From: a virus
DNA: 20,723 nucleotides
Virus genome (UHGV): UHGV-0278151
Direction: 5' to 3' (one strand)
Part shown: piece after piece, positions 8,077-20,364 of the stretch
Position numbering within the stretch: position 1 is the first letter of the stretch
Layout of the letters: every line of letters starts with the position of its first letter
The notes under the pieces: model-generated
What the model was told of the DNA's origin: nothing
The model's database searches: none
What the model saw: only the letters and a program-made list of their open reading frames with translations
Translations under genes and position numbers: made by a program

Positions 8077-9376
8077 TTACACTGGTGTGTTCAGCAAATC
8101 GTTAACGGCATCAGATGCCGGGTTACCTGCAGCCAGTGGTGCCGGTGCCCCCTGCATCAGACGATCCAGCGCAGTGTCACTGCGCGCCTGTGCACTCTGT
8201 GGTGCAGCTGCCAGAATGCGGCGGGCCGTTTCCACGGTCATACCGGGGGTTTCGGCCAGCACACGTGCCTGTTCTTCGCGTCCGTGAGCTTCCTCACAGT
8301 TGAGGATCCCCATAATGCGGCTGTTTTCTGCCGCAACCGCAGCGGTGATCTGCGCGTTCACGTCCGGCTGCGCCGCGCTGGCGTTTTCGCCCTCCGTCGC
8401 TTGCACCACGTCAGTAACGTCAGCCTGCGAAGCAGTGGCTGAAACAGTTGTTGATTGAGTCTCTTTGGTCATTCGCCCTCCTGAGAGACGGGATTTACGT
8501 GCATCCAGTGCATCACGCATAACGGTGATCGCATCGGTGCTGTTGACAAGTTCATCAGCCAGTCCGGCATCAATGGCCTCCTGACCGCTGTACACTGCAG
8601 CCTCGGTATCCAGCACAGCCTGCACGGACAGGCCGGTATATGCCGACACCTTCTGCGCAAACATCCGGCGGGTTGCATCCATCCGGGACTGCAGTGTCTC
8701 CCGGACATCACCCGGTAGATGGCTGTAGGGGTTGCCATCCACCTTATGGCTGCCGCTGTAAATCAGCGTGATTTCCACGCCCTGTTTCTCCAGCGCAGCG
8801 CCGTAATTACTGTGAGCCATCATGACGCCGATGGAGCCTGTCCGGGCGGTCTGCGTGACCAGACGCCGGGAGGCGGCGCTGGCAAGCAGCTGACCTGCAC
8901 TGCAGTTCATGTCGTTGGCCAGCGCCCATACCGGCTTTATGTCACGCACACGGGCGATGATGTCAGCACAGTCAAATGCTCCCGCCACCATCCCGCCCGG
9001 TGTGTCCATATCGAGCAGAATGCCGTCCACCATCGGATCGCTGGCAGCCTGTTGCAGACGGGCGATAATGCCGTTGTAACCGGTCATTCCCGAATACGGC
9101 TGCAGCGCCCGCGTCCGGCTGACCAGCGTACCGGACACCGGCAGCACGGCGATGCCGTTCATGACCTGATAACTGCGGGCCTGTCGTGGTCCGTCATCAT
9201 CACCGGATAACGCCAGCGCCGCGGGTGCCTCTCCGGCAGTCAGGCTGTCGCCGGATACTGCATCCGTCAGGCGACTGATCCCAAGCTGGCCTGCAAGCGC
9301 ACAAAAGAAAACCCGCGCATAGGCGGGTTCAAGCATCAGCGGCTCATTAAAAGCCATGCTGGCAATATGCGGGAGA

Positions 9377-16002: not shown

Positions 16003-16155
16003 TTATTCAGATTTACGCAGTAAAGGCCGGAGCACGACCAGCGCCATCGCCACCAGCACACCATCTGCCAGCACCGACATCAGCCGTCCGGTGAAATCCA
16101 CCACCACTACCAGAAACAGCAGGATGGCAGCCAGCACAAGGCGCGCACTTTTCAC
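16003..16155 (-). CDS. Small two-helix membrane protein (about 50 aa), translationally coupled to upstream TerB-like gene
   Basis: GTG at 16153-16155 overlaps the TerB-like stop TGA (GTGA). The translation VKSARLVLAAILLFLVVVVDFTGRLMSVLADGVLVAMALVVLRPLLRKSE has two hydrophobic segments and charged ends. It is too short for the ORF track, which listed only ORFs of 60 aa or more. Confidence 0.45.
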   Translation of the reverse strand: MKSARLVLAAILLFLVVVVDFTGRLMSVLADGVLVAMALVVLRPLLRKSE

Positions 16156-16577
16156 AGGTACTGCTCCAGCGGCAACTGCAACGCCTGTGCAATTTTCTTG
16201 AGCTGCACTTCTTCATCAGGACCGATGCCGTCCTGGTCAGCAATATCCAGACACAGACACAGCACGTTAACTGCATCATCAGTACCGGCAACATCAGCCA
16301 GCTGACGAAGGGCTTCGGCATTGGCAGAACGCGGTGACGCTTCATAACGGGCGCGGATATTTGCACTCATTTGTGCAATCTCACCCGAGAACGGCGCAAA
16401 GGCAGGAAGTGCTGCAATGGTTTTCTCCAGCACAGCGATTTCTTTCGCATCACAGGTGCCGTCGGCGAATGCTATGGAATACGCACCCCAGACGGTCGCC
16501 TCCACTGCATCGCGGTTCTCCATCTTCTTCACTTCGGTAATGGCCTTGCGGGTTTTCTTTTTGAAAATACCAAACAT
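16152..16577 (-). CDS. TerB-like (tellurite-resistance TerB / DjlA N-domain family) protein
   Basis: 141 aa, MFGIFKKKTRKAITEVKKMENRDAVEATVWGAYSIAFADGTCDAKEIAVLEKTIAALP...DDAVNVLCLCLDIADQDGIGPDEEVQLKKIAQALQLPLEQYL. It shows the two-fold repeated pattern typical of TerB domains: a hydrophobic helix, an acidic DG motif, then E-rich and LxxIAxxL segments. Shine-Dalgarno AAGGA lies upstream of the ATG. Confidence 0.55.
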   Translation of the reverse strand: MFGIFKKKTRKAITEVKKMENRDAVEATVWGAYSIAFADGTCDAKEIAVLEKTIAALPAFAPFSGEIAQMSANIRARYEASPRSANAEALRQLADVAGTDDAVNVLCLCLDIADQDGIGPDEEVQLKKIAQALQLPLEQYL

Positions 16578-16902: not shown

Positions 16903-16937
16903 ACACGGGCATTATCAGTGTCCGTGTTTCTTTTTTT
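16903..16937 (+). terminator. Second intrinsic terminator (plus strand)
   Basis: ACACGGGC...GTCCGTGT hairpin (16903-16927) followed by TTCTTTTTTT. Confidence 0.5.
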
Positions 16938-16958
16938 AGGATTCAGAATAAAAAAAAC

Positions 16959-16985
16959 CGCCCGGTGGAGGCGGTAAAGGATGTA
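16959..16985 (-). terminator. Intrinsic terminator (minus strand)
   Basis: ACCGCC-CGGTGGA-GGCGGT hairpin followed on the minus strand by a run of 8 T (plus-strand A-run at 16959-16967). Confidence 0.6.
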
Positions 16986-17242: not shown

Positions 17243-17312
<70 letters not shown>

Positions 17313-17446
17313 TGACGGTTTTATTGCCACATCCGTAACAACAGTCGACAGGAATAATATACATTCAGAATCAGCCGCCTTAGCTAATTGTGCAACCATC
17401 TGCTCTTTGCAAGTGCACTTAACGTCCTGCGCCACTTTTCAGGCAT

Positions 17447-17469
17447 AAAAAAACCCGCTCAGTGGCGGG
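17447..17469 (-). terminator. Strong intrinsic terminator (minus strand)
   Basis: CCCGC-CACTGA-GCGGG hairpin followed by TTTTTTT on the minus strand. It is near-identical to the element at 18171-18195. Confidence 0.7.
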
Positions 17470-17600
17470 ATCTTTTGATAAAAACGACAAAGGCACCATT
17501 AAGGTGCCTTTTACACAGGGGCAGCAGGCTTGTCATCACCTCATCGCTACTCCTGGCTTCCTGTTCGGAAGTCTCACAAGTCCCATCAGGGTACAGCGAC

Positions 17601-17629
17601 AGTATCAGCCAACACACTATGTGTGTCAA
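17601..17629 (-). promoter_or_regulatory. Sigma70-type promoter (TTGACA-17 bp-GATACT) with a 15-bp dyad in the spacer
   Basis: The minus strand reads aTTGACAcacatagtgtgttggctGATACT. The -35 is consensus at 17624-17629, the spacer is 17 bp, and the -10 (17601-17606) matches 4 of 6. The spacer contains the palindrome ACACACATAGTGTGT. Confidence 0.55.
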
Positions 17630-17640
17630 TATAAATTCAT

Positions 17641-17673
17641 ATCGAATTCGATAATCGTTTTCGATTATCGATA
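17641..17673. repeat. Tandem dyad-symmetric sites ATCG-N4-CGAT (x2) plus TATCGATA
   Basis: ATCGAATTCGAT (17641-17652, perfect 12-bp palindrome), ATCGTTTTCGAT (17654-17665) and TATCGATA (17666-17673). They overlap the stop codon of the PemK/MazF-like gene and lie 12 bp upstream of the -35 at 17624-17629. Confidence 0.7.
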
Positions 17674-18066
17674 CAGATAAGCCATCCCTATCCCGTGCAA
17701 TACCGCCCGTTTAATATTCTCAAACTCATCTTCCGCAATCATAGGAACAATATAATTTCGTCCCTCCCAGGTTCTGGTTTTTATGCGATCCAGTCGGCTC
17801 AATGAAACCGTCATCAACATGTCACATTTTACCCAGCAAGTAATATGCTCATTACCAGGTATGGGGTTTTCTGATAACTCATGATGGCAATCTCTGCGAG
17901 GGAGCGGTTCAGTAGTGCTTATTGGTACCACTGTTACCAATTGATTGTTGTGCCTGTTTCTGGACACGACCACCACTGGCCTGACCTTGACTATTTCCGG
18001 AACAACCATTCCCCGAAAATCACACATTAAAACAGAACGAACAGACGGCTGATACTTTAATACCAT
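17665..18066 (-). CDS. PemK/MazF-family-like protein (candidate endoribonuclease toxin), no adjacent antitoxin ORF evident
   Basis: From ATG at 18064-18066 the translation is MVLKYQPSVRSVLMCDFRGMVVPEIVKVRPVVVVSRNRHNNQLVTVVPISTTEPLP...ITCWVKCDMLMTVSLSRL...EDEFENIKRAVLHGIGM. This aligns by motif with Kid/PemK and MazF/EndoA (GDIxxVDF-like strand, VRPxxVV, N..., VxVVPITS, hhxCDQhxTIDxxRL, C-terminal helix). Confidence 0.55.
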   Translation of the reverse strand: MVLKYQPSVRSVLMCDFRGMVVPEIVKVRPVVVVSRNRHNNQLVTVVPISTTEPLPRRDCHHELSENPIPGNEHITCWVKCDMLMTVSLSRLDRIKTRTWEGRNYIVPMIAEDEFENIKRAVLHGIGMAYLYR

Positions 18067-18150
18067 AAATCTCTTTGCCTGATAATGACGACTTGTGAAC
18101 TCCACTACAAACAAAATGATTCTGCTGAACAGGCAGTTTCGCACTATACA

Positions 18151-18156
18151 TTATAA
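18151..18156 (-). promoter_or_regulatory. Consensus -10 hexamer (TATAAT) upstream of PemK/MazF-like gene; no good -35
   Basis: The minus strand reads ggTTATAATgtatagtg, 85 nt upstream of the ATG at 18066 and immediately downstream of the terminator at 18171-18193. Confidence 0.4.
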
Positions 18157-18170
18157 CCTGTTAAGCCAAC

Positions 18171-18193
18171 AAAAAAACCCGCTCGGCGGCGGG
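18171..18193 (-). terminator. Intrinsic terminator (minus strand) between the 229-aa gene and the PemK/MazF-like gene; nin-region tR-like
   Basis: CCCGC-(CGCCGA)-GCGGG hairpin followed by TTTTTTT on the minus strand. It is a direct near-repeat of the 17447-17471 element (23 of 25 bp identical). Confidence 0.65.
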
Positions 18194-18259
18194 ATTTGCT
18201 TACTTTGCCATCGAGTACAAAATCGGCAAAATATCAGATTTGCACGAAATATATGCCTT

Positions 18260-18949
18260 TTAATCTACTTTTGCAACACTTTGCTTTGAAAATGCCGTCT
18301 TTTGTTCTGAACGTGTTCTCATCACAAACAATAAAGCCTCACTATCCAGCCGGTGGAAAATGTGTTTCATTGCAACCCAGTGACCAGTAAATGTTTTGGA
18401 CCAGTTTTTTGTTGTTACTCCCGCCAGTAATGCCAGTTCCTGATATTCATAAGTTTCACGCCCAGCTAGCTCACTCTTCACATCCTGTGCCGCCAGCCAG
18501 ATTAATTTTTTCAGGCGCTCCCGTGTTTTCTCCGCAATTTTTCTGGTACCAGATTGCGCGTTAAATTCATTCCACGCCCACTGTGTTATCGCAATCTGGT
18601 GTTCCCAGCAAATGCTGCCGCTGTAACACCACAGCAACCAGGCTTTATAGTGTTCTTCAAGAGACAGAACCGCCCGTCGCCATGATGATGTCGAAAACTC
18701 AACCTGACTTACCAGAGGAATTGACGTCCTCTTTGCCAGCGATTGTTTCCCCGGGATTGGTGGATTATCCCGCGTTATCATTTTTCCGGTCACTTCATCG
18801 CGGTACCGGATTTTTTTACGCCTGTAACGCCCTGTATCAAACATGGCATTCTCCTGCCAGGCTTCAAGCTGACCTTTTGTTGCCCCACTCAAATCGGCGG
18901 TGGCAATAATGAGCTGCTCACGAACAAACTGTAAATACTGGTTATTCAT
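18260..18949 (-). CDS. nin-region protein immediately downstream of rusA; candidate late-gene antiterminator Q (assignment positional, family not verified)
   Basis: 229 aa from ATG at 18947-18949, which overlaps the rusA stop (ATGA). It occupies the last position of the early-right/nin block before the late control region. I could not recall a confident sequence match to lambda Q or any other Q family. Confidence 0.4.
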   Translation of the reverse strand: MNNQYLQFVREQLIIATADLSGATKGQLEAWQENAMFDTGRYRRKKIRYRDEVTGKMITRDNPPIPGKQSLAKRTSIPLVSQVEFSTSSWRRAVLSLEEHYKAWLLWCYSGSICWEHQIAITQWAWNEFNAQSGTRKIAEKTRERLKKLIWLAAQDVKSELAGRETYEYQELALLAGVTTKNWSKTFTGHWVAMKHIFHRLDSEALLFVMRTRSEQKTAFSKQSVAKVD

Positions 18950-19305
18950 GCGCACTCCAGCCCTGTGATTTTTATCCCCAACCGACCACCAGGAACGACC
19001 TGACCGCGCACAATATTGATTTCATCAAACTGCTCGTCGTCGATAAGCAGTCCCGCATACGTCAGCGCATCCAGCGGTGCTTTCAGAATATTGTCCAGGT
19101 CACGACGGCGCTTATCCGGCGGCTCTGCAATGATCTTTATCGCCAGCCTTCCGGACAGGTTTAATTTCAGCCGCTGCTGGCGAACAATAAGCGCCACATC
19201 ACGGCGATAACGCTCACCGGCTTTTGATACAAAATATGTGCTGCCACGACGACGCCAGTAGGTGTTCACCGTCGGCGGGTAAGGCAAAACAAACTCTATA
19301 CGCAT
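18946..19305 (-). CDS. rusA: Holliday junction resolvase RusA
   Basis: 119 aa, MRIEFVLPYPPTVNTYWRRRGSTYFVSKAGERYRRDVA...PDKRRRDLDNILKAPLDALTYAGLLIDDEQ.... It has the RusA signature (PPSVN/TY...RRDLDN...DD) and a GAGG Shine-Dalgarno before the ATG at 19303-19305. Confidence 0.85.
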   Translation of the reverse strand: MRIEFVLPYPPTVNTYWRRRGSTYFVSKAGERYRRDVALIVRQQRLKLNLSGRLAIKIIAEPPDKRRRDLDNILKAPLDALTYAGLLIDDEQFDEINIVRGQVVPGGRLGIKITGLECA

Positions 19306-19317
19306 CAGTAACCTCTT

Positions 19318-20364
19318 TTACCCGAGCACGCCGGTTGCAAAGGCGCGATCAAGAAAACGAAAAATTAAATCAATCTGGGAACCATGCTTTTCTTCGAACG
19401 CCAGCGGATCCGCATGAAGCTCGTTGTGATGCTCCCGACACAGCGGTAGCGTGAAAATATCGTGGGATTTTGTCCCTATTCCGCCCTGACCATGACCAAT
19501 CAGGTGATGGGGATCGTCGGCTGGCTTACCACAACACGCACACGGCTGTGTCTTTACCCAGCGCGTATATTTCTCATTTACCCAACGGCGACGTTTAGGT
19601 CGCTTCATGAAAGATTCCGGAGACTCCGGATCAACAGCAATGCTGACCACCGTCTTTTCCTGTGGTGGGTTTTGCTGGTGGGCGTGAGGCAGCGGCGCAA
19701 GATTTTTTGTGCGCTGCTTCAGTATGCTGATGGCGGTCTGCTCTCCCGGTACGATGTCGCTTTCGCGGTACACCGAGCGAATTTTTTCCGCACGTAACCC
19801 CAGAGAACGACGTAATACTACCTCCGGTAGTGCGTCCGCCACCTGATTGCAGACAGCCCACCAGGATAATTCAGCCAGCGATAATTCCCGCTCCTGTGTG
19901 CCATTCATTGCATGGCGCATGACGTCAATCATCCATGCTGACAGGTTTTGGTGAGCAAGTTGCTCAAGTGATTCGGAGGACTGGTCACGCAACTGGTTGT
20001 CACAGTGCCAGCACAACACCATCGCGCCAGCACCGTAACGATGTATGACGGTTTCGCTGTGATGGTAATCACCATGAGGCCACTGGCAGGATTTAATATG
20101 GCGCAACAGCCAGTCAGACAATGCACCAGCACCACCAGCAGCACGAATTACCCGTGCGTTACTGAAAAACGGCAGCAATGTTTTGTCTTCCACCAGCGGC
20201 TGGCGAGCGGCAGGAACGACCCCGGACGGCAGATTACGCATGCTTTTCGGTTCCGGCTCCACCAGTACCCGGGTATTGTGGAATACCGGCATGGATTCAC
20301 GGCCCGGCTTAACGACCACCAGCCCAAGTTCCGGTACCAGAACAGGTCGAAGTAATACCCGCAC
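19318..20364 (-). CDS. DUF968 / NinG-like nin-region protein with C-terminal Cys/His (HNH-like) motif
   Basis: About 348 aa (GTG start; an internal ATG is possible). The C-terminus reads RPKRRRWVNEKYTRWVKTQPCACCGKPADDPHHLIGHGQGG...LCREHHNELH, which resembles the lambda NinG/Rap-type Cys/His region. Confidence 0.7.
   Translation of the reverse strand: MRVLLRPVLVPELGLVVVKPGRESMPVFHNTRVLVEPEPKSMRNLPSGVVPAARQPLVEDKTLLPFFSNARVIRAAGGAGALSDWLLRHIKSCQWPHGDYHHSETVIHRYGAGAMVLCWHCDNQLRDQSSESLEQLAHQNLSAWMIDVMRHAMNGTQERELSLAELSWWAVCNQVADALPEVVLRRSLGLRAEKIRSVYRESDIVPGEQTAISILKQRTKNLAPLPHAHQQNPPQEKTVVSIAVDPESPESFMKRPKRRRWVNEKYTRWVKTQPCACCGKPADDPHHLIGHGQGGIGTKSHDIFTLPLCREHHNELHADPLAFEEKHGSQIDLIFRFLDRAFATGVLG

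Follow-up and report, generated by a model that had tools for sequence, protein, structure and literature searches.

The window analysed here, the whole 20,723-nucleotide stretch of UHGV virus genome UHGV-0278151, is a lambda-like (lambdoid) prophage read backwards. Its plus strand carries a 25-base sequence, AAAAAAACCCGCTC(A/G)G(T/C)GGCGGGAT, twice, as copy A (17447-17471) and copy B (18171-18195), and the genes around both copies are all on the minus strand. The features of the region are listed below in minus-strand order; the genomes and loci used for comparison carry L numbers.

18260-18955, minus strand: late-gene antiterminator Q of the phage-82 type (Pfam Phage_antiter_Q, E 1.2e-93)
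18248-18276, minus strand: predicted pR'-like late promoter overlapping the end of Q (-35 TTGCAA at 18276-18271, -10 TATATT at 18253-18248)
18171-18195, minus strand: copy B, putative tR' of the 82-type Q module (stem 18193-18178, U7 18177-18171; terminator scan, fold)
17447-18170, minus strand: cargo segment of 724 bp, missing in the single-terminator relatives (L014-L016)
17622-18115, minus strand: 494-bp indel that contains the toxin gene (ATG/CAT microhomology at 17619-21 and 18113-15)
17665-18066, minus strand: YifN-type PemK/MazF-fold protein of 133 aa (start ATG at 18066, preceded by AAGAG)
17601-17629, minus strand: predicted small-RNA promoter (TTGACA, 17 nt, GATACT; 10/12, the best in the region by consensus scan)
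17480-17593, minus strand: structured small RNA of ~114 nt (fold z-score -4.5; covariation; conserved in relatives)
17591-17582, minus strand: helix P1 of the small RNA
17580-17572, minus strand: joint J of the small RNA, CUUGUGAGA
17571-17557, minus strand: helix P2 of the small RNA
17555-17545 paired with 17526-17516, minus strand: helix P3 of the small RNA, enclosing the loop GAUGACAAGC at 17537-17528
17511-17489, minus strand: P4 of the small RNA, which is terminator t2 (tail GUCGUUUUUA)
17447-17471, minus strand: copy A, a second tR'-type terminator (stem 17469-17454, U7 17453-17447), 20 nt after t2
17419-17446, minus strand: conserved flank of 28 nt behind the terminator, moving with the terminator slot
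17243-17318, minus strand: chimeric pseudo-tRNA (5' 36 nt from tRNA-Arg, 3' 40 nt from tRNA-Gly; Rfam tRNA 48.5 bits, partial)

The repeat pair had been noticed in a sequence-only reading, and its position, common orientation and unrelated flanks within the window were confirmed. The copies are identical at 23 of 25 positions, sharing stretches of 8 and 14 bases, and lie 724 bp apart from start to start. The degenerate 25-mer matches the window twice, against 0.00 matches expected from 100 dinucleotide shuffles. On the minus strand both copies read CCCGC-N6-GCGGG followed by U7, a canonical intrinsic terminator in the terminator scan, and the hairpins are predicted to fold in isolation at -12.1 and -10.1 kcal/mol; the description of the repeats as terminator modules therefore stands as a prediction. 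A weaker terminator can also be read on the plus strand of copy A.

Much of this identity is generic. The core AAAACCCGC-N6-GCGGG is also found at 9308-9327, in an unrelated terminator that has 18-19 of 25 positions in common with copies A and B, leaving only ~4-5 positions of repeat-specific signal. Because the hairpin core is generic, the similarity of A and B cannot by itself prove common descent. The sequence-only reading had allowed for a widespread generic terminator, which proved apt for the core but not for the pair, since the kinship of the copies is seen from their positions in relatives rather than from the 25-mer, as the genome comparisons below indicate. Copy A of the window matches copy B at 23/25 positions and its positional orthologue in L003, L005 and L006 at only 19/25, which could reflect local conversion or chance.

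The Q gene shares ~78% DNA identity with phage 82 Q and 91% with the Q of phage 606R7 and of PPompW prophages. The pR'-like promoter scored 9/12 in the consensus scan and its sequence is conserved together with the Q module in L001, L010, L011 and L014-L017; we predict that it is active. Copy B lies ~55 nt past its -10 box and is the first terminator downstream of the late promoter, so that a pR' transcript ending there is predicted to be ~65-70 nt long. The same relatives, which have the same Q type, hold terminators, including variants, in the copy B slot, and in many relatives homology to the Q module stops at ~18169-18172, the U-tract of copy B. We therefore assign copy B as the probable tR' terminator that closes the phage-82-type Q/pR' module. 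Copy A takes this tR' position behind a lambda-type Q in L006 and L013, where a block matching window 17591-17419 (RNA element and copy A) directly follows the lambda-type Q and a lambda-like pR' (TGGTAAATT..TAACGATGGG). Copy A thus appears to be the tR' allele that follows lambda-type Q in other prophages, and the idea that the terminators were duplicated on insertion had to be abandoned, copy A being a native terminator in these two genomes.

The 28-nt flank links the two slots. It follows the single terminators of L014-L016 as well as the A-slot terminators of L003-L009 and L012-L013. A query containing it was matched by 105 E. coli genomes, and many of the matches listed start at 17419 and stop at 17469-17475. 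Beyond the flank, a real tRNA at 17243-17318 was considered and rejected: ARAGORN made no call, and block comparison with the Arg-Thr-Gly cluster of L006 identified a chimera.

A synthetic 'empty site' query, made of the A-side flank, one terminator and the pR'/Q end, was matched contiguously over 372-382 bp by at least 31 E. coli genomes. These genomes have a single repeat copy and lack the intervening DNA, the arrangement that the sequence-only reading had proposed to look for. In L014-L016 the order is B-type upstream flank, single terminator, A-type downstream flank. Since the single terminator joins the upstream flank of B to the downstream flank of A, the 724 bp between the copies are inserted cargo. 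Beginning immediately behind tR' and closed by a terminator of its own, this cargo consists of a 55-nt spacer (no donor was found outside the set of 33 genomes), the YifN/MazF-like gene, the gene of the small RNA together with its promoter and terminator, and copy A. Its GC content is 43.5%, compared with 54.5% for the window; the Q gene is also low (46.6%). Other genomes carry alternative cargo in the slot, namely ORF6N genes (L007, L009), a 237-aa ORF (L011, L017) or tRNA genes (L001, L010).

Nine genomes, L003 and eight others, keep both terminators ~225 nt apart and lack exactly the 494-bp segment with the toxin gene. Both copies without the cassette are what the sequence-only reading had named as evidence against insertion, and in part these genomes do speak against it; L003 was dropped as a refutation once the empty-site query had found the single-terminator genomes. 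The junctions of the 494-bp indel lie 55 and 150 bp inside the repeats and show ATG microhomology only. A palindrome, ACACAC-ATA-GTGTGT (17625-17611), sits between the boxes of the small-RNA promoter, and both palindrome and promoter span the junction, which suggests that L003-type genomes arose by deletion. Either one 724-bp insertion was followed by loss of the toxin gene in L003, or the segment was built up stepwise. The proposed moron insertion is partly sustained by the absence of the 724 bp from relatives, their AT-richer composition and the varying cargo of the slot, but the toxin indel has its junctions elsewhere than at the repeats.

These data are consistent with a model, which we regard as likely, where copies A and B are two tR' alleles with a 28-nt flank, made tandem by the 724-bp cargo, and where the toxin would be expressed late through Q read-through. 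It is backed by the anatomy of the locus, by the relatives that have one terminator and by the positional homology of A and B. The tandem placement of the copies follows from the cargo, which separates tR' from the flank that normally comes after it. In lambda, 82, 21 and Stx phages pR' is constitutive and its transcript is terminated at tR', giving a short RNA (PMC7547250). The Q of phage 82 is loaded during a sigma70-dependent pause shortly after the promoter and enables polymerase to read through terminators (PMC4914094). As in other lambdoid phages, the pR' after the phage-82-type Q is presumed to be constitutive. It would be followed by three intrinsic terminators, first copy B, then t2 and last copy A. 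In a lysogen, transcripts from pR' would halt at copy B, and the small RNA would start at a promoter of its own and halt at t2 or copy A. On induction, Q-modified polymerase would pass all three terminators, as expected from the known behaviour of 82 Q (PMC4914094), and we propose that the MazF-like gene would therefore be expressed as a late gene. The precise course of events and the activity of each signal may differ from this outline.

Convergence is the simplest alternative: the copies would be unrelated Rho-independent terminators, alike through the E. coli preference for an A-run, CCCGC, a loop, GCGGG and a T-run. The recurrence of the core at 9308-9327, near hokD, and in relatives ahead of holin genes fits this, as does the 18-19/25 agreement of an unrelated terminator with both copies. 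We nevertheless consider it decidedly improbable, because one 28-nt flank lies behind both slots in relatives, or can be linked to them, and the single-terminator genomes connect the left flank of B to the right flank of A. Moreover, L008 combines an A-type flank with a B-type loop, L011 and L017 have flank-like sequence after both terminators, and the data already point to A- and B-type hairpins that form a continuum at a single conserved position.

The hybrid terminator of L008 can also be read as a product of recombination. The 25-mers themselves might be the substrate, short-homology exchange (e.g. by phage Rad52-like recombinases) having inserted the cargo or swapping it. The 8 and 14 identical bases shared by B and A would serve such exchange, and mosaic breakpoints fall at or next to the hairpins (18169-18172 against L001 and L010; 17469-17471 against L007, L008, L009 and L012). 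However, selection on functional modules after any recombination leaves breakpoints at module ends too, the toxin indel and the 17419 junction lie outside the hairpins, and loops differ among hairpin variants, which limits uninterrupted homology. The long flanking homologies (Q module, RNA gene, hyp65-methylase module) are enough for exchange. No evidence of recombination inside the 25-mer, suggested by the sequence-only reading, was seen; ordinary homologous exchange between flanking modules would leave this pattern too, and we judge the short-homology mechanism unlikely. Direct repeats at both ends with a single copy at empty sites would, finally, be expected of a target-site duplication by a transposable element carrying the toxin gene. 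We give this almost no credence: the repeats span 25 bp, match imperfectly (23/25) and are hairpin terminators also seen on their own in many contexts, the segment holds no transposase or integrase and no terminal inverted repeats were noted in it, and the toxin gene is gained or lost at other junctions. The likely reading stays that of two tR' alleles made tandem by cargo.

The protein encoded by the cargo matches Pfam PemK_toxin (PF02452, E 7.6e-14) and PHROG 15698 (E 1.5e-47). Its homologues are 127-143 aa long and some carry the source annotation 'YifN (PemK superfamily)'. AlphaFold2 returned a model with pLDDT 89, whose best Foldseek matches are MazF of S. aureus, B. subtilis and M. tuberculosis (probability 1.0, TM 0.68/0.80); the model thus predicts a MazF/Kid fold with high confidence. 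The invariant Arg29 and Ser50 align with MazF R29 and the T52 region. There was no match in NCBIfam or PADLOC, single-sequence search of the PDB gave no match and a profile search gave weak MazF matches only. The protein is too distant from solved MazFs for single-sequence detection.

Only 104 nt separate copy B from the toxin ATG, and a 43-aa ORF in this interval has no family match. No adjacent gene for a MazE/PemI-like protein antitoxin was found here or in any locus of the subfamily that was fetched, and no partner gene was called in L018-L028. Upstream of the toxin ATG there is a lone TATAAT (18155-18150) with no -35 box, and the promoter scan lists none. The repeats had been thought to bound a promoter-gene unit; instead, no convincing promoter was seen for the toxin gene, and the strong predicted one belongs to the downstream small RNA.

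The small RNA recurs across several phyla; Enterobacter, Xenorhabdus, Pseudomonas, Geobacter and Paragemmobacter have it behind homologous genes. It follows the protein gene in 45 of 48 close viral homologues and in all eight distinct genome loci. A pattern scan of genomes gave 78 distinct cores, to be read against an estimated ~245 chance matches and against the failure of about a quarter of the 120 loci returned to pass a structural filter. By eye, a -10-like hexamer stands 9 nt before P1 in the window and in L018, L022, L025, L040, L044, L074 and L083. Covariation is seen in a hand-fitted, N-padded alignment, and the structure rests also on unconstrained, alignment-free folding of each sequence. 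MAFFT with RNAalifold on 17 RNA sequences recovered P1 alone, because the variable helices were misaligned. A coding role for the region was rejected, since P2 lengths of 14, 15, 16, 18, 23 and 34 nt differ by non-multiples of three and the helices show compensatory changes. No Rfam 15 family reached its gathering threshold in the window, a scan of 17400-18300 at E<=10 gave just weak terminator-like matches well under the cut-offs, and 16 other loci, including true instances of the RNA, gave none. The literature searched held no description of it, although such absence is not proof of novelty. The RNA appears to be previously uncatalogued and is widely conserved, and it travels with the YifN-type MazF-like toxin family. 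In L003, L006, L013 and many viral contigs it is present while the toxin gene is not; in L006 and L013 the structured RNA is itself part of the pR' leader.

Their co-occurrence leads us to suggest, tentatively and as somewhat short of an even chance, that the YifN-type MazF-fold protein and the downstream RNA form a toxin/RNA-antitoxin module. It would be type III-like, with a single-copy pseudoknotted RNA whose invariant loop GAUGACAA may act as pseudo-substrate or docking site, and would be carried as late-region cargo by lambdoid phages; the RNA-only prophages and viral contigs might use the RNA as an immunity element or anti-toxin mimic. Phages can carry a type III antitoxin RNA alone as a mimic. 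As in the type III systems ToxIN, CptIN and TenpIN, often found on phages or plasmids, a small protein of the Kid/MazF fold class lies beside a non-coding RNA. In ToxIN-like systems, however, the antitoxin RNA, which binds and inhibits the endoribonuclease, is an array of tandem repeats ahead of the toxin gene with a terminator between the two, and no direct repeats were found upstream of the gene here. The RNA of the window is single-copy, is located downstream of the toxin gene and has a predicted promoter of its own, and the protein is a relative of MazF, not of the ToxN/AbiQ family. The MazF fold is shared with type II MazEF/PemIK, which differ in having a MazE/PemI-like neighbour gene, mostly placed ahead of the toxin in one operon.

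The arrangement resembles the lambdoid pR'-tR' leader (lambda 6S RNA; 82, 21; StxS) in its promoter at the end of Q and an intrinsic terminator tens of nucleotides on, and Q-dependent read-through and a short leader RNA in lysogens would be expected here too (PMC7547250, PMC4914094). It differs in having three serial terminators, the outer two of which enclose a protein gene plus an independent sRNA gene. DNA beyond pR' is the recognised site of 'moron' insertion, and sRNA genes are found there (PMC4104026). Lambdoid morons (Juhala et al., 2000, via PMC4104026; PMC3594210) share with our segment the extra DNA missing from close relatives, the post-pR' site, lower GC and an own terminator. In contrast to these, no convincing private promoter was seen here for the protein gene, the unit is composite (gene and sRNA gene) and the terminator at its distal end is a tR' allele like the resident one, not an unrelated terminator. 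The AsxR/AgvB anti-sRNAs of EHEC prophages (PMC4104026) are likewise encoded at the distal end of the cargo slot beside Rho-independent terminators, but our RNA has four helices and roughly double their length, shares its strand with the late operon and is conserved far outside Enterobacteria. Copy A with its flank was rejected as an anti-sRNA of this type, since the published core is not in the window even with up to 8 substitutions allowed.

The repeats are a clean sequence-level illustration of cargo stacking in the Q-pR'-tR' slot, which also carries Shiga toxin genes. That the resident terminator and the 28-nt flank are the seams of this slot is useful but expected biology. More consequential is that 'orphan' MazF-like toxins, annotated everywhere as type II and lacking an antitoxin, nearly always precede a conserved structured RNA that has a predicted promoter of its own. 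If the RNA were the missing partner, this would explain how these toxin genes are tolerated, add an RNA-antitoxin class to the MazF superfamily and provide a testable model in which toxin expression is coupled to phage late transcription. The toxin and RNA pair ranges from enterobacterial prophages to Pseudomonas, Geobacter, Planctomycetota and Deinococcota, and in Enterobacter/Klebsiella and Xenorhabdus prophages the same pair lies ~250 nt after Q-type antiterminators.

The 25-base direct repeat described by the sequence-only reading is real. The sequence AAAAAAACCCGCTC(A/G)G(T/C)GGCGGGAT occurs twice on the plus strand, as copy A (17447-17471) and copy B (18171-18195); the copies are identical at 23 of 25 positions, their starts are 724 bp apart, and no such pair of 25-mer matches was found in shuffled window sequence. 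Every gene in this region lies on the minus strand, where both copies have the form CCCGC-N6-GCGGG with a trailing run of seven U and are predicted to be textbook intrinsic terminators. The core AAAACCCGC-N6-GCGGG recurs at 9308-9327 in an unrelated terminator that has 18-19 of 25 positions in common with copies A and B, and relatives carry similar hairpins near hokD and upstream of holin genes. Not too much specificity should be read into the 25-mer.

The window is a lambdoid prophage in reverse orientation, with the following features around and between the repeats.

19318-20364, minus strand: DUF968 protein, first in the minus-strand gene order
18946-19305, minus strand: RusA, after DUF968
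18260-18955, minus strand: Q antiterminator (Pfam E 1.2e-93)
18276-18248, minus strand: promoter-like site TTGCAA-17 nt-TATATT, overlapping the end of Q
18066-17665, minus strand: 133-aa ORF
17629-17601, minus strand: strong promoter-like site TTGACA-17-GATACT (10/12), the region's best
17480-17593, minus strand: highly structured stretch of ∼ 114 nt with terminator t2 at its end
17511-17489, minus strand: t2, a second terminator, closing the structured stretch

The minus-strand series runs from copy B through a 55-nt spacer, the ORF, its following promoter-like site and the structured stretch to copy A, which lies 20 nt after t2 and is followed by a 28-nt conserved flank and a tRNA-like remnant. 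Beyond lie a TerB-like gene, two holins, an M15 endolysin and long ORFs that we take to be morphogenesis genes. The window Q is a phage-82-type Q, sharing ∼ 78% DNA identity with phage 82 Q and 91% with Q of phage 606R7 and PPompW prophages. Copy B lies ∼ 55 nt past the -10 box of the promoter-like site at the end of Q, and the two form a putative pR'-tR' arrangement. Published work describes pR' as constitutive: its transcripts end at tR' except when Q, which loads at a sigma70-dependent pause, renders polymerase resistant to terminators (PMC7547250, PMC4914094).

Comparison with E. coli complete genomes and phage records revealed four states of this slot. State 0 was detected with a synthetic query built from the A-side flank, a single terminator and the pR'/Q end: an uninterrupted match of 372-382 bp occurs in at least 31 genomes, with further ones having divergent Q ends. 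In three relatives' loci (L014, L015 and L016) the minus strand reads GATGGCAAAGTAAGCAAA-[hairpin]-UUUUUUU-GTGCCC.AAAAGCGGTACAGGACGTTAAA, the upstream flank and loop type of copy B joined to the downstream flank of copy A. State 1 (nine genomes, e.g. L003) has two terminators ∼ 225 nt apart and the RNA element, without the protein gene. State 2 (24 genomes including the window) has an added 494-bp segment, 17622-18115, holding the protein gene. Other cargo comprises ORF6N-domain genes after a different Q (L007, L009), a 237-aa ORF (L011, L017) or tRNA genes (L001, L010).

The sequence-only reading had proposed that a toxin cassette was inserted, or cargo swapped, by recombination at a duplicated terminator. 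An empty site with a single terminator does exist, and the comparison supports the core of that proposal, with the repeats as seams of inserted DNA and a slot that exchanges cargo; the low GC of the 724-bp insert (43.5% versus 54.5% for the window) also fits. Three specifics are not supported. Gain or loss of the toxin gene has junctions of its own, with ATG microhomology only, 55 and 150 bp inside the repeats. Both copies persist in the nine state 1 genomes, which have no toxin gene. No crossover inside the 25-mer is evident. A perfect palindrome, ACACAC-ATA-GTGTGT (17611-17625, minus strand), lies in the spacer between the -35 box and the -10 box of the small RNA promoter and could be an operator. 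Because palindrome and promoter both span the 17621/17622 junction of the toxin-gene indel, we think that state 2 is the original, contiguous form and that microhomology deletion produced the L003-type genomes. One simple way to reach state 2 would be homologous exchange inside an RNA gene shared by two phages, one with Q-pR'-tR'-gene-RNA, as in Enterobacter, and one with pR'-RNA-t2-copy A-flank of the L006 type.

Copy B is part of the Q module: homology to Q-module relatives stops at ∼ 18169-18172. Copy A is part of a block found elsewhere at the close of a late leader of lambda type: in L006 and L013 a homologue of 17591-17419 (RNA element, t2, copy A, flank) comes directly after a lambda-like pR' (TGGTAAATT...TAACGATGGG) that goes with a different Q of lambda type (273 aa). 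The same 28-nt flank stands behind both copy A and copy B in one genome or another. The L008 terminator (2001-2048), an apparent recombinant of the two, has a downstream flank of type A and a loop of type B, the latter with 22/22 identity to window 18169-18190; in L011 and L017, sequence resembling the flank stands behind both terminators. For these reasons we regard the two copies as alleles of a single positional element (tR' plus flank), in tandem through the intervening cargo. Copy A itself varies. A paired 1-nt deletion and insertion separates the window allele, which L004 and L013 share, from the commoner allele of L003/L005/L006. The commoner hairpin has 6 bp and a 3-nt loop, the window hairpin 5 bp and a 6-nt loop, and window copy A is closer to copy B (23/25 positions) than to the commoner allele (19/25). 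The repeat is accounted for by known biology, as tR' alleles at the seams of a lambdoid cargo slot. The unexpected content of the interval is a gene-plus-RNA module.

The ORF starts at ATG 18066 (AAGAG 5 nt upstream) and encodes 133 aa (homologues, 127-143 aa), matching the Pfam family PemK_toxin (7.6e-14) and a PHROG without annotation (1.5e-47). Structure comparison of its AlphaFold2 model (pLDDT 89.3) recovered solved MazF nucleases at probability 1.0 and TM 0.68/0.80, and the family-invariant Arg29 and Ser50 align to the MazF R29 and T52 region. Some sources name homologues 'YifN (PemK superfamily)'. No antitoxin-like ORF was found beside the gene in the window or any fetched locus. Enterobacter/Klebsiella and Xenorhabdus prophages carry the gene ∼ 220-250 nt past a Q-type antiterminator, before the lysis genes. 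No convincing promoter was seen from copy B to the ATG, and in the window prophage the gene is therefore probably expressed via Q-dependent read-through. A perfect hairpin, CGATAATCG-AAAA-CGATTATCG (17649-17670, minus strand), overlaps its stop codon (17667-17665).

The first helix of the small RNA is P1 (CCC-loop-GGG), preceded at 9 nt by a -10-like hexamer (by eye; window, L018, L022, L025, L040, L044, L074, L083). Single-stranded CUUGUGAGA (J) follows, then hairpin P2, whose closing pairs are always C-G and U-A, helix P3 (∼ 10 bp), which displays the loop G-N-GAUGACAAGC, and UGUGAAA before the terminator hairpin with tail CUUUGUC(A/G)UUU. The loop ACAAG is complementary to CUUGU of J, and AUGACAA to UUGUCAU of the tail, so a pseudoknot or alternative pairings are possible. 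In viral contigs (L226-L233, L219-L225) RNA subfamilies alter both 'invariant' blocks jointly (J CUUGUAAAAC with loop GAUAACAAGC; J CUUGCAAGAC with GAUGACAAGC), which may reflect a tertiary contact or co-variation with a partner protein.

A pattern scan of one genome per species gave at least 120 loci; among the matches listed ∼ 90 pass the P1/P2/P3 test, yielding 78 distinct cores, with Pseudomonas, Vogesella, Phytobacter, Caulobacteraceae, Geobacter, Planctomycetota and Trueperaceae represented. Of the viral contig hits, 44/46 pass. In an alignment of 16 diverse sequences, hand-fitted to the structure and so leaning towards it, pairing cells reach 93.7% (63.4% shuffled), double-change cells 100 (32.8 shuffled) and the covariation score 0.646 (0.188 shuffled; reached by 0/500 shuffles), with slid controls at most 0.135. 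Unconstrained, alignment-free MFE folding of 102 distinct sequences picked on sequence pattern alone recovered all three helices in 79%, versus 1.6% with the variable parts shuffled. A coding explanation for the region was excluded because helix lengths vary by non-multiples of three. Rfam 15 holds no family matching the RNA, and no description was found in the literature searched.

The RNA, conserved and covarying in this anatomy, co-occurs with the gene in several phyla. In Enterobacter the gene and downstream stretch form one block of DNA homology (window 18089 to 17482, 74% identity); the stretch is recognizable behind homologous genes in Xenorhabdus, Pseudomonas, Geobacter and Paragemmobacter, and in Alcanivorax is convergent to the gene. 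The MazF-like gene is directly upstream in 57/91 genomic instances (among the matches listed) and 28/44 viral instances. Conversely, the RNA is just downstream in 45/48 viral loci whose protein is at least ∼ 45% identical to the window's and in all eight distinct genome loci fetched through homologues; no adjoining RNA was detected for more distant homologues. RNA-only copies sit after HigBA-like or HicB-like genes, restriction-modification genes or phage Q genes. One genome (L138) has two copies differing in P2 and P3, one after a MazF-like gene and the other after a HicB-like antitoxin gene. The module resembles type III toxin-antitoxin systems in logic but fails their defining features (repeats, order, toxin family); lacking a protein antitoxin, it falls outside the type II definition as well.

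With moderate confidence, we propose that three terminators in series would form a Q-controlled barrier of the late operon. Copy B would end the pR' leader, while t2 and copy A would end the small RNA and any transcript of the MazF-like gene and would insulate what lies downstream, the tRNA remnant and the lysis genes. More tentatively, and with lower confidence, the RNA might be a functional partner (antitoxin or regulator) of the nuclease, made constitutively in the lysogen, with nuclease rising only once Q opens the terminators; RNA-only prophages might keep it as immunity or mimic.

The tRNA-like remnant (17243-17318, minus strand) received no ARAGORN call and its acceptor strands no longer match. 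The 36 nt at its 5' end reproduce the 5' half of L006 tRNA-Arg exactly, and the 40 nt at its 3' end correspond to the 3' half of tRNA-Gly, with one mismatch to the copy in L006; the two parts join within the shared TCAGCCTTC of the anticodon arm. This chimera implies that recombination between tRNA genes removed tRNA-Thr and two half-genes. Between the remnant and the TerB-like gene lies an extra terminator pair, 16957-16975 (minus) and 16903-16927 (plus); the minus-strand member (ACCGCCTCCACCGGGCGGT plus U8) shows 79-83% similarity to copies A and B across 24 nt (repeat-finder family D3). The TerB-like protein (16152-16577, minus strand) and a small DUF3927 protein (ORF annotated in L002) form a second accessory block between the cargo slot and the holins, shared with or pseudogenized in EHEC-type prophages (L008, L010).
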